Shown piece after piece: positions 2,340 to 3,352 of a DNA stretch of 8,511 bases. A program made the translations under genes and the position numbers. Every line of letters starts with the position of its first letter. Position 1 is the first letter of the stretch. The notes below the pieces were generated by a model. It made no database searches. It was not told the DNA's origin and worked only from the letters and a program-made list of their open reading frames with translations. The DNA comes from a virus (Duplodnaviria > Heunggongvirae > Uroviricota > Caudoviricetes): the IMG/VR virus record IMGVR_UViG_2547132273_000021; one strand, 5' to 3'.

Positions 2340-3167
2340 TTATTTAACCTGGATAAATGGTGTATTTGCACCGCTGGTCATGTATTGCGGCAGTGTGCCG
2401 TTCCATTTATTGATGGCTTCCAGCTCCATAACACCGGGGTTCTGGCGCAGAGCTTCACCGCGTAAACGAATAGCATCGGCTTCGGCCTGGGCTTTTGTGC
2501 GAATCGCATCAGCCTGTCCGGCAGCTTCCGCGCGCAACATGTTGGCCTCCGCTTCACGTTGCTTGACTTCCTGCTCGCGCTGCAGGGTTTTCTGGTTTGC
2601 CGTGACTTTGGCGTTAATGCTGTCGATAACGGTTGGAGGGTATTCCGGTTTACCTACATAAGAGAGGCTCATTACCTGAATGCCGATGGGTGTCATCTCT
2701 TCCTGAATGTCTTTAAGTGCGGCATCCAGTAGTTCAGACTTGCCGCCGTCGATAAATTTGTCAGTGGTCATTTTGCTGGCCAGCCGATTGAGTGCGTCGG
2801 CAATTTTCTGGCGCAGGTCAGTGTCGGTAATGTCATCCACGCCTTTGCGGTAGGTCTGAAACACCGTGGTAACTTTGGATGGATCAACTTTGTAGGCCAC
2901 ACCGATGTGATAGCCGATGGTTGTACCGTCACTCATCTGGAAACTGAACGGTTCATCGTAGGTCTTCATTTGTTTGAAGGTGGGGAAGATATAAACTTCA
3001 GTATTCCAGCCAGTCCAGTAGCGACCAACACCGACCACCTCACCGACGCCTTTGTCGTCGCCTAGTTTATTTACCTTGATGCCAACATTACCTGGTTCAA
3101 CGCGATCGCAACCGACAAGGCCAATAGTCGGCAGAACAATGGCTAAAGCAAAAATAATTTTTTTCAT
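2340..3167 (-). CDS. SPFH/Band-7 (prohibitin/HflK/C-like) family lipoprotein, 275 aa
   Basis: N-terminal lipoprotein signal peptide with lipobox LVGC, followed by Asp at +2 (the inner-membrane retention rule in E. coli). Central SPFH-like region and a C-terminal Ala/Glu/Arg-rich coiled-coil typical of the HflK/C and prohibitin family. AAGGA Shine-Dalgarno 6 nt before the ATG at 3165-3167. Confidence 0.85.
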   Translation of the reverse strand: MKKIIFALAIVLPTIGLVGCDRVEPGNVGIKVNKLGDDKGVGEVVGVGRYWTGWNTEVYIFPTFKQMKTYDEPFSFQMSDGTTIGYHIGVAYKVDPSKVTTVFQTYRKGVDDITDTDLRQKIADALNRLASKMTTDKFIDGGKSELLDAALKDIQEEMTPIGIQVMSLSYVGKPEYPPTVIDSINAKVTANQKTLQREQEVKQREAEANMLRAEAAGQADAIRTKAQAEADAIRLRGEALRQNPGVMELEAINKWNGTLPQYMTSGANTPFIQVK

Positions 3168-3352
3168 CTTTTATCCTTAGTGAAAGAAAGACCCTTGTAA
3201 ATGGCATAAATGCAGGGCGGGGTCAGAAACGCCAGTGCAAAGCAAGAAATAACTGCTATCGTATCCTTCATGGATATAAGGAACGGAACGAGTAATCCGT
3301 AAATGCATGCGATAATTGCCAGTAAAATTACTATTGTGAAATACAGTCTCAT
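3164..3352 (-). CDS. Small hydrophobic membrane protein, 62 aa, two predicted TM helices
   Basis: ATG at 3350-3352. Its TGA stop overlaps the SPFH start codon (ATGA overlap at 3164-3167), implying translational coupling. Two hydrophobic helices (LYFTIVILLAIIACIYGLLVPFLI and IAVISCFALAFLTPPCIYAIY). Weak Shine-Dalgarno. Confidence 0.6.
   Translation of the reverse strand: MRLYFTIVILLAIIACIYGLLVPFLISMKDTIAVISCFALAFLTPPCIYAIYKGLSFTKDKR

Follow-up and report, generated by a model that had tools for sequence, protein, structure and literature searches.

Proteins of the SPFH family, which include HflK/C, prohibitins, stomatins, flotillins and erlins, form membrane cages whose contents and purpose are debated. 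SPFH proteins are also encoded by phages. We found no functional study of these phage proteins in the searchable literature, only speculation: a role in lysogeny was suggested in a 2023 paper on Burkholderia phage CSP3 (PMC10269572), and a 2026 paper states that the reason for the presence of an SPFH lipoprotein in a phage genome 'remains unclear' (PMC13239085). Here, we describe an 8,511-nucleotide stretch of Caudoviricetes DNA, IMG/VR record IMGVR_UViG_2547132273_000021, referred to below as the window. In the window, a gene for a 62-residue protein with two transmembrane (TM) helices overlaps a gene for a 275-residue SPFH lipoprotein. This gene pair is best explained as one example of a two-gene membrane module that is widespread in phages and has gp19/gp20 of coliphage N4 as its prototype.

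The DNA of the window belongs to a lambdoid prophage of E. coli that is phiP27-like and of the Stx type. Over positions 2200-3500, three E. coli chromosomes match it at 100% identity, as in strains GB089 and 09-00049, and phiP27 matches at 96.5%. In phiP27 the SPFH gene is named L05 and its small partner has no annotation. Both proteins are already catalogued, as PHROG 200 (SPFH protein, E=7.3e-115) and PHROG 1130 (partner, E=2.7e-21). What appears to be undescribed in the searchable literature is the coupling to a dedicated partner that is not of the NfeD type, the lipid anchor, the existence of fused forms and the distribution across phages of all kinds.

The closest described relatives are in phage N4. 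The SPFH protein of the window is 62% identical to N4 gp20 over its full length. N4 gp19 is a 68-residue protein with two TM helices joined by the turn L-x-P-S-x-x-S-A-x-D-S, and its gene overlaps gp20 by 8 nt. The two systems differ in that N4 is strictly virulent and gp20 has Tyr, not Asp, at the +2 position of the lipobox. In N4, gp19/gp20 follow closely after the RNAPII genes gp15/gp16 and in the same direction; we take this position to be the early/middle region. The gene just upstream of the pair, gp18 (L095 4407-4721), is annotated 'superinfection exclusion, similar to P22 gp17'. Hence, the N4 pair lies in a cluster of host-interaction genes. No published function for N4 gp19 or gp20 was found in the literature searched.

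Among cellular proteins, HflK/HflC are the best structural match (~280 aligned columns). They have the same domain order and, like the phage protein as we picture it, face the periplasm from the inner membrane. However, identity is ~17%, and HflK/HflC are a hetero-pair whereas the phage system has one SPFH gene. Furthermore, HflK and HflC have their own N-terminal TM helix, in place of which the phage-encoded system has a lipid anchor and a separate protein with two TM helices. The SPFH-NfeD operons (QmcA-YbbJ, YqiK-YqiJ and FloA/FloT) resemble the window in that a gene for a small membrane protein, with which the SPFH protein works, lies upstream of the SPFH gene. In those operons the SPFH domains face the cytoplasm, whereas the phage SPFH protein is predicted to be exported by the Sec route. 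In addition, the window partner matched no Pfam family at E<=0.01, and so no NfeD or OB-fold domain, and QmcA is a weaker structural match than HflK/HflC (E=4.5e-7). The superinfection exclusion proteins Imm and Sp of virulent phage T4 combine an early small inner-membrane protein with a periplasm-facing membrane-anchored protein. This is a functional analogy only; there is no relationship of sequence or fold, the T4 genes are uncoupled and neither encodes an SPFH protein. PM0222, an HflK/C-like virulence factor of Pasteurella multocida, can be likened to the window protein in that it is an SPFH protein encoded on a lambda-like prophage. It differs in that it is reported to be released in vesicles and to act on macrophages via TLR1/2 (PMC9872710).

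Co-translated neighbours conserved across temperate and virulent phages

The sequence at the junction of the two genes reads ...AAGGATAAAAGATGAAAAAA..., so that the stop codon of the partner gene and the start codon of the SPFH gene share an ATGA (Table 1). An AAGGA Shine-Dalgarno sequence is also present inside the partner ORF (open reading frame). Hence, the SPFH gene may be able to initiate independently, besides being coupled. Ratios of nonsynonymous to synonymous substitution (dN/dS, Nei-Gojobori) between divergent copies were 0.01-0.07 for the SPFH gene and 0.08-0.41 for the partner gene. Because these values are low, both ORFs are real genes; they are under purifying selection, with the partner evolving faster than the SPFH protein.

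The pairing was examined at 95 loci: the window, three phage records, 80 IMG/VR contigs and 11 species-representative genomes. Partner ORFs were found with hydropathy ranking. A homologous ORF of 55-78 residues with two TM segments is directly upstream of the SPFH gene at 91 of the 95 loci, and the junction there is an overlap of 4, 8 or 20 nt or a gap of 3 nt. The 80 contigs, which were the best 80 of the scan, are near-identical phiP27-like prophages; independent evidence comes from the other backbones. Among the four exceptions, one locus is cut at the SPFH start and one is a pseudogenised symbiont copy in which the partner is still present. In the remaining two, from Shigella and E. coli, an apparent IS1 end takes the place of most of the partner gene. 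At these two loci (Shigella flexneri SFBU1023, L084, and E. coli ECMA0423, L085; ~5670-6000) the IS1-like terminal sequence is upstream of an intact SPFH gene. Across the phage lineages sampled, the partner was found in 11 of 13. The pairing of the two genes is not due to chance.

We also searched 50,697 phage records using tblastn and found the SPFH protein in 385. Of 5426 complete E. coli genomes, 570 have a copy, and 233 of the 660 places where it occurs are on plasmids. The pair is present in P2/186-like P88 (gp11/gp12), where the partner gene and the early-operon gene before it share 4 nt, and in the 108-kb phage-plasmid PhiR41_1, where it adjoins replication and recombination genes. In P1-like RCS47 the pair is between upl/plp and ban (L002 3364-4511), with an unannotated partner of 78 residues, and occupies the site where P1 itself carries tciA-C. 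An overlapping perfect and two-mismatch P1 C1 operator (L002 6249-6276) is ~1.7 kb upstream of the RCS47 pair, and thus not adjacent to it. The tblastn matches extend to N4 and N4-like phages, rV5-like Vequintavirinae, FelixO1-like Ounavirinae, LUZ24-like Bruynoghevirus, phiCbK-like Caulobacter phages, crAss-like phages, the 350-kb phage Munch and Lak megaphages, all of which we take to be strictly virulent.

A partner-like protein with two TM helices precedes the SPFH gene in Maja, Munch, phi1026b and cr126_1, and a protein with three TM helices does so in Magneto. In PVP-SE1 (L097 2145-3379), partner gp115 and SPFH protein gp117 are split by gp116, a non-membrane protein of 54 residues; the surrounding region is rich in further small membrane proteins. 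Across phage records the SPFH lipoprotein is labelled 'serine protease', 'transposase', 'peptidyl-tRNA hydrolase' or 'metallophosphoesterase'. These labels appear to be misannotations that have spread between records. Frequently, as in the phiP27 and RCS47 records, the partner gene is missing from the annotation. Taken together, the two genes are co-translated neighbours that have stayed together in unrelated phages, both temperate and virulent. The module is old and uncharacterised, is common to hundreds of such phages and is not cargo specific to prophages.

In some cases the two proteins are one chain. An exhaustive search of 1.84 billion representatives gave 3005 relatives at E<=1e-3, of which 227 reached E<=1e-30. 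Fusions of 320-390 residues account for ~18 of the best 150 representatives (clustered at 50% identity). In each, a partner-like domain with two TM helices and the shared motif is followed by a basic linker, a third hydrophobic segment ending in the lipobox Cys, and the SPFH region; the lipobox Cys is invariant across the fusions. Since the fusions are only 31-46% identical to each other, they are not a sequencing artefact. Two of the contigs that encode them resemble large phage genomes. The AlphaFold2 model of fusion P0276 (predicted local distance difference test, pLDDT, 83.6) contains a confident hairpin of TM1 and TM2, a third helix and the SPFH fold. The natural fusions are Rosetta-stone evidence that the two proteins of the window operate together as a single physical unit.

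Architecture of the SPFH protein and its partner

The 275-residue protein matches the Pfam Band_7 family (PF01145) over residues 22-208 with E=6.1e-31 and 108.3 bits, against a gathering cut-off of 23.6 bits. Its N-terminus reads MKKIIFALAIVLPTIGLVGC followed by DR. This fits a signal peptide followed by the lipobox pattern [LVI][ASTVI][GAS]C, with Asp at +2. Both Cys20 and Asp21 are at least 90% conserved among 48 enterobacterial homologues. According to the E. coli +2 rule, Asp at this position retains a lipoprotein in the inner membrane. Hence, on the basis of the Asp, the inner-membrane partner and the fused forms, we infer that the SPFH protein is kept at the periplasmic face of the inner membrane after its predicted lipidation.

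A model of the protein was made with AlphaFold2, using an alignment of 48 sequences. It consists of a beta-rich N-terminal part, an alpha/beta SPFH domain, a 65-residue helix (residues 178-242) and a tail of low confidence. Thus, the domain plan is that of cage-forming SPFH proteins in full, from the membrane-proximal beta-rich part to the tail. In a profile search of the PDB, the helix region matched the coiled-coil regions of prohibitin-2 and HflK. The tail is disordered in the monomer model (pLDDT <50), and yet residues W255, G257, P260, P270, F271 and K275 are invariant; the W, G and P are invariant in a distant alignment too. By analogy with known cages, the conserved tail is a candidate for inter-subunit cap contacts.

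We next compared the model with known structures. Foldseek gave full-length matches in the PDB to HflC/HflK (E=1.3e-13), prohibitin, erlin, stomatin, flotillin (~1e-8) and QmcA-YbbJ (4.5e-7), with identity of 15-18% throughout and E-values in the top group too close to discriminate. Matches in the PDB sequence profile search were weak (HflK, 7e-4; PHB2, 1.7e-3; HflC, 8e-3). Orthology to HflK or HflC was rejected; the NCBIfam equivalog scores were 25.5 bits against a cut-off of 134.4 for HflC and 23.4 against 159.4 for HflK. The window and related loci contain a single Band_7 gene and no paralogous K/C pair. The phage protein belongs to a distinct SPFH subfamily that has the build of a cage former and is no HflK/C orthologue.

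The partner has hydrophobic stretches at residues ~1-29 and 31-51 and a basic C-terminal tail, KDKR. At 62 residues, it is too short for anything besides two helices. It can be aligned with the partners of P88, RCS47, N4, Maja and PVP-SE1 and with the N-termini of the fusions. The partners are mutually 18-35% identical and follow a common pattern of TM1, Y-G-x-L-x-P-x-L-I-S-A-x-S/D-T and TM2, the turn between the helices being the most conserved segment. The positive-inside rule predicts that both termini are cytoplasmic. The conserved turn, L-V-P-F-L-I-S-M-K-D-T in the window, would then face the periplasm, where the SPFH protein is expected to sit. This topology is supported by the fusions, which are consistent with the N-terminus in, the turn out, the linker in and the SPFH region out.

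These results bear out the structural part of the initial annotation, a first reading of the window made without database searches. That reading had recognised both ORFs and their ATGA overlap, the SPFH/Band-7 identity, the LVGC lipobox with Asp at +2 and a long C-terminal coiled coil of the type found in HflK/C and prohibitins. It had also set the partner apart from NfeD proteins and treated the two proteins as a unit, as the 91 loci, the distant phages and the fusions now do.

Early expression and possible roles

The pair is inside a long co-directional leftward operon. No sigma-70-like promoter was detected, at the scan threshold, on the coding strand of the AT-rich spacer upstream of the partner gene, and the only nearby minus-strand promoter match falls inside the partner ORF (3340-3312). 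Similarly, the scan detected no minus-strand terminator in 5300-2340. Promoter and terminator counts across the scanned region (1500-6400) were at chance level, and scans as crude as these provide weak negative evidence. The hairpin after the SPFH stop codon was rejected as a terminator; it has no U-tract, its folding score is z=-1.1 and 30 of 200 shuffled sequences fold at least as well. A moron, meaning a self-contained cassette with its own promoter and terminator, was likewise not recognised in these scans.

A pL-like candidate promoter, accompanied by three operator-like sites of the form TGATACYWNRG, is downstream of the cI-like gene, and matching sites are found in the cI/cro intergenic region (Table 1). 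The window has five copies of the motif, none of them outside these two clusters, compared to 0.10 expected. Furthermore, the 17-mer TTGATACTTTGGATTCT (6077-6093) matches 5338-5354 at 16 of 17 positions. The two sets of repeats, which flank the cI-like gene, are probably OL and OR of a phiP27-type phage, and the leftward operon that contains the pair probably starts at the pL-like promoter. Because no promoter or terminator of its own was detected, and because the OL/OR layout is as in lambdoid phages, the pair is most likely part of a repressor-controlled leftward early operon, and would be produced once induction or infection has taken place, not while the lysogen is quiescent. The 4-nt overlap with an early-operon gene in P88 fits this picture.

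We propose that the SPFH lipoprotein would oligomerise into an HflK/C-like dome or cage on the periplasmic face of the inner membrane. The hairpin of two TM helices would supply the membrane-spanning subunits that HflK/C make with their own N-terminal helices, and together the two proteins would fence off a patch of inner membrane. The pair would be transcribed with the leftward early operon from the repressor-controlled pL-like promoter and would act after induction or infection. On balance, we lean towards such a periplasm-facing SPFH assembly on the inner membrane, made early and with the partner as an integral subunit. With respect to its role, we tentatively suggest that the cage protects the inner membrane or periplasm of the infected cell from envelope damage or from the entry of secondary DNA, which would amount to exclusion during lytic growth. 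It is slightly more doubtful that the cage acts on a universal inner-membrane client, for example FtsH, by sequestering or modulating it. The remaining probability falls to some other organisation of the membrane. That many phage families build their own periplasm-facing SPFH cage early, capturing an FtsH-like client or shielding the membrane, is a conjecture that we hold only tentatively.

Several observations weigh against this proposal. The cage, and the role of the partner in it, are drawn by analogy. The AlphaFold2 model of the SPFH protein is moderate (mean pLDDT 73; predicted template modelling score 0.52). An Arg at +3 may weaken inner-membrane retention, and in the window protein Asp+2 is followed by such an Arg. 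Beyond the enterobacterial clade the +2 residue varies, being Tyr in N4 and commonly S, T or G. Hence, inner-membrane retention is a prediction. Protein P0110, whose cluster is found on 175 contigs of phage-plasmids of ~110 kb, has Tyr where the lipobox Cys would be (GIIGYDRV) and is otherwise a conserved SPFH protein; because of this replacement P0110 cannot be lipidated. The phages Pa222 and phiEa21-4 have no partner with two TM helices. With regard to expression, the operator motif was derived post hoc and the 176-bp spacer could hold a promoter missed by a simple scan. Lastly, PHROGs places the partner in the category 'moron, auxiliary metabolic gene and host takeover'.

The initial annotation took the pair to be int-proximal prophage cargo for defence, abortive infection or the tuning of lysis and lysogeny. 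The location is as described; xis is ~0.75 kb away, and this part of the lambdoid prophage is its accessory region. However, the pair is embedded in a co-directional operon and is not a self-contained cassette. Expression in the lysogen, for membrane-based superinfection exclusion or abortive infection, would suit this location, the PHROG category and a promoter hidden in the spacer. The module also moves among phiP27-like, P2-like, P1-like and phage-plasmid backbones in the manner of accessory genes, and the combination of a small inner-membrane protein with a periplasmic membrane-anchored one recalls T4 Imm/Sp. Even so, we consider such a defence unlikely. No promoter or terminator was detected around the pair, its operon is downstream of operator-flanked pL-like sites, and PADLOC (PADLOC-DB v2) gave no match for the window pair, N4 gp19, N4 gp20 or fusion P0276. 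The range of the family, which covers enterobacterial, Caulobacter, Burkholderia and crAss-like phages, is not that of typical receptor-specific exclusion genes. The pair is also carried by strictly virulent phages, which have no lysogen to protect. This argues against both a lysogen-protecting defence and a role in the lysogeny decision, and would fit exclusion in the course of lytic growth, modulation of a universal client (FtsH, for example) or another envelope function. The same observation bears on an FtsH/HflKC mimic that tunes lysis and lysogeny via the stability of CII-like regulators, an idea also suggested elsewhere (PMC10269572). In support of a mimic, the closest cellular or solved relatives of the SPFH protein are HflK/HflC and prohibitins, which are partners of AAA proteases; the protein is expected, from its signal peptide and lipobox, to face the periplasm as HflK/C do; and a gene for a CII-like helix-turn-helix (HTH) protein is within the same operon. 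Moreover, the equivalent pL operon of lambda includes the gene for CIII, its inhibitor of FtsH. Conversely, the equivalog scores are far under the cut-offs, there is one SPFH gene rather than a K/C pair, and virulent phages with the module make no lysogeny decision. The module is also found in P1-like phages, the switch of which is not, to our knowledge, known to use FtsH. We therefore regard a mimic of this kind as quite improbable.

The pair also has some resemblance to lysis proteins. A small protein with two TM helices and a basic tail is similar to class II holins, an inner-membrane protein and a lipoprotein encoded by overlapping genes are superficially like two-component spanins, and lysis inhibition in N4 has upstream factors that are yet to be identified (PMC12642591). 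However, the pair is outside the lysis cassette, in early regions, in every phage examined. The N4 spanins, endolysin, regulator and pinholin are gp60-63, with spanins gp60/60a, and none of >60 rapid-lysis mutants mapped to gp19/gp20 (PMC12642591). In addition, an i-spanin has a long periplasmic domain and the partner has essentially none, and a lipoprotein of 275 residues with an inner-membrane-type +2 residue is unlike a small o-spanin. Spanin, holin and lysis-inhibition readings were rejected on gene position and the N4 mutant data, and we see very little chance that the pair is a lysis-timing device of any sort. An equally slim chance is given to a lysogenic-conversion or virulence lipoprotein acting on the animal host. 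Such a role has a precedent in PM0222 (PMC9872710) and would suit the Stx-type prophage family of pathogenic E. coli from which the window comes. Yet the module is also found in environmental, plant-pathogen, Caulobacter and virulent phages, and the obligatory inner-membrane partner and the fusions argue for a function in the cell envelope.

Superinfection exclusion during lytic growth is possible, and N4 gp19/gp20 could be the missing superinfection-exclusion system of N4. According to a 2025 preprint that system is unidentified, and the pair is a concrete candidate for it (PMC12642591). If the cage proposal is correct, the module represents a previously undescribed kind of phage-host membrane interaction. 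The compact phage version, with one SPFH gene and one gene for two TM helices that are sometimes fused, would also be a tractable model of SPFH cage function, and is present in model phages (N4, P1-like, P2-like and Stx phages). The module is expected to be dispensable in the laboratory. Interest would be modest if the pair proved to be a generic envelope-stabilising accessory.

Gene neighbourhood and coordinates

On the minus strand, the gene order is cI-like, HTH, three genes of unknown function, the 176-bp spacer, partner, SPFH, DUF5406, DUF4222, excisionase and integrase. The coordinates of the features discussed are in Table 1.

Table 1. Positions of features of the SPFH gene pair and its operon in the window
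Feature	Position	Strand	Basis or detail
Gene for 62-residue two-helix inner-membrane partner (PHROG 1130; N4 gp19 homologue)	3164..3352	-	ORF, hydropathy
Gene for 275-residue SPFH/Band_7 lipoprotein (PHROG 200; homologue of phiP27 L05 and N4 gp20)	2340..3167	-	
ATGA stop/start overlap	3164..3167	-	SPFH ATG 3167-3165, partner TGA 3166-3164
AAGGA Shine-Dalgarno of SPFH gene, within partner ORF end, 6 nt before ATG	3174..3178	-	Read from sequence
Predicted signal peptide and lipobox L-V-G-C (Cys20 codon 3110-3108), Asp+2 (3107-3105)	3105..3167	-	Sequence
Band_7/SPFH domain, residues 22-208	2544..3104	-	Pfam PF01145; AlphaFold2 pLDDT 70-90; Foldseek
Long C-terminal helix, residues 178-242, counterpart of the coiled-coil wall of SPFH cages	2442..2636	-	AlphaFold2; PDB profile matches
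Conserved C-terminal tail K-W-N-G-x-L-P ... P-F-x-x-K, residues 254-275	2343..2408	-	
7-bp GC hairpin after SPFH stop, no U-tract	2314..2332	-	
AT-rich spacer, 176 bp, upstream of partner gene	3353..3528	-	
HTH protein gene, first after cI-like gene in minus-strand order	5270..4836	-	
pL-like candidate promoter TTGCCA-17-TACCAT (5330-5302) with three operator-like TGATACYWNRG sites, downstream of cI-like gene	5275..5349	-	
cI-like HTH + S24 repressor gene	6105..5374	-	
Matching operator-like sites, cI/cro intergenic region	6054..6093	.	

The DUF5406 ORF, as listed, spans 1928-2371 on the minus strand, and its GTG start overlaps the SPFH gene. Its PHROG match starts only at residue 25. Hence, the true start is probably an ATG near 2305, which would leave a 34-bp gap with the hairpin inside. 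Two DUF4222 paralogues are on opposite arms of the prophage, at 1615-2019 (minus strand) and 7882-8055 (plus strand). The rightward operon encodes a ProQ/FinO-family RNA-chaperone-like protein (8119-8511, plus strand; Pfam E=2e-13), the ORF of which runs past the end of the window.

An orphan ORF of 268 residues with one hydrophobic stretch is at 6383-7189 on the minus strand and overlaps a plus-strand ORF (6371-7117). It had no match in Pfam, PHROGs or PADLOC. The orphan corresponds to phiP27 L13 and is antisense, between the cro-like and Ant/Rha genes of the immunity region. Because of its reverse orientation, this ORF is a better candidate than the SPFH pair for a gene expressed in the lysogen.

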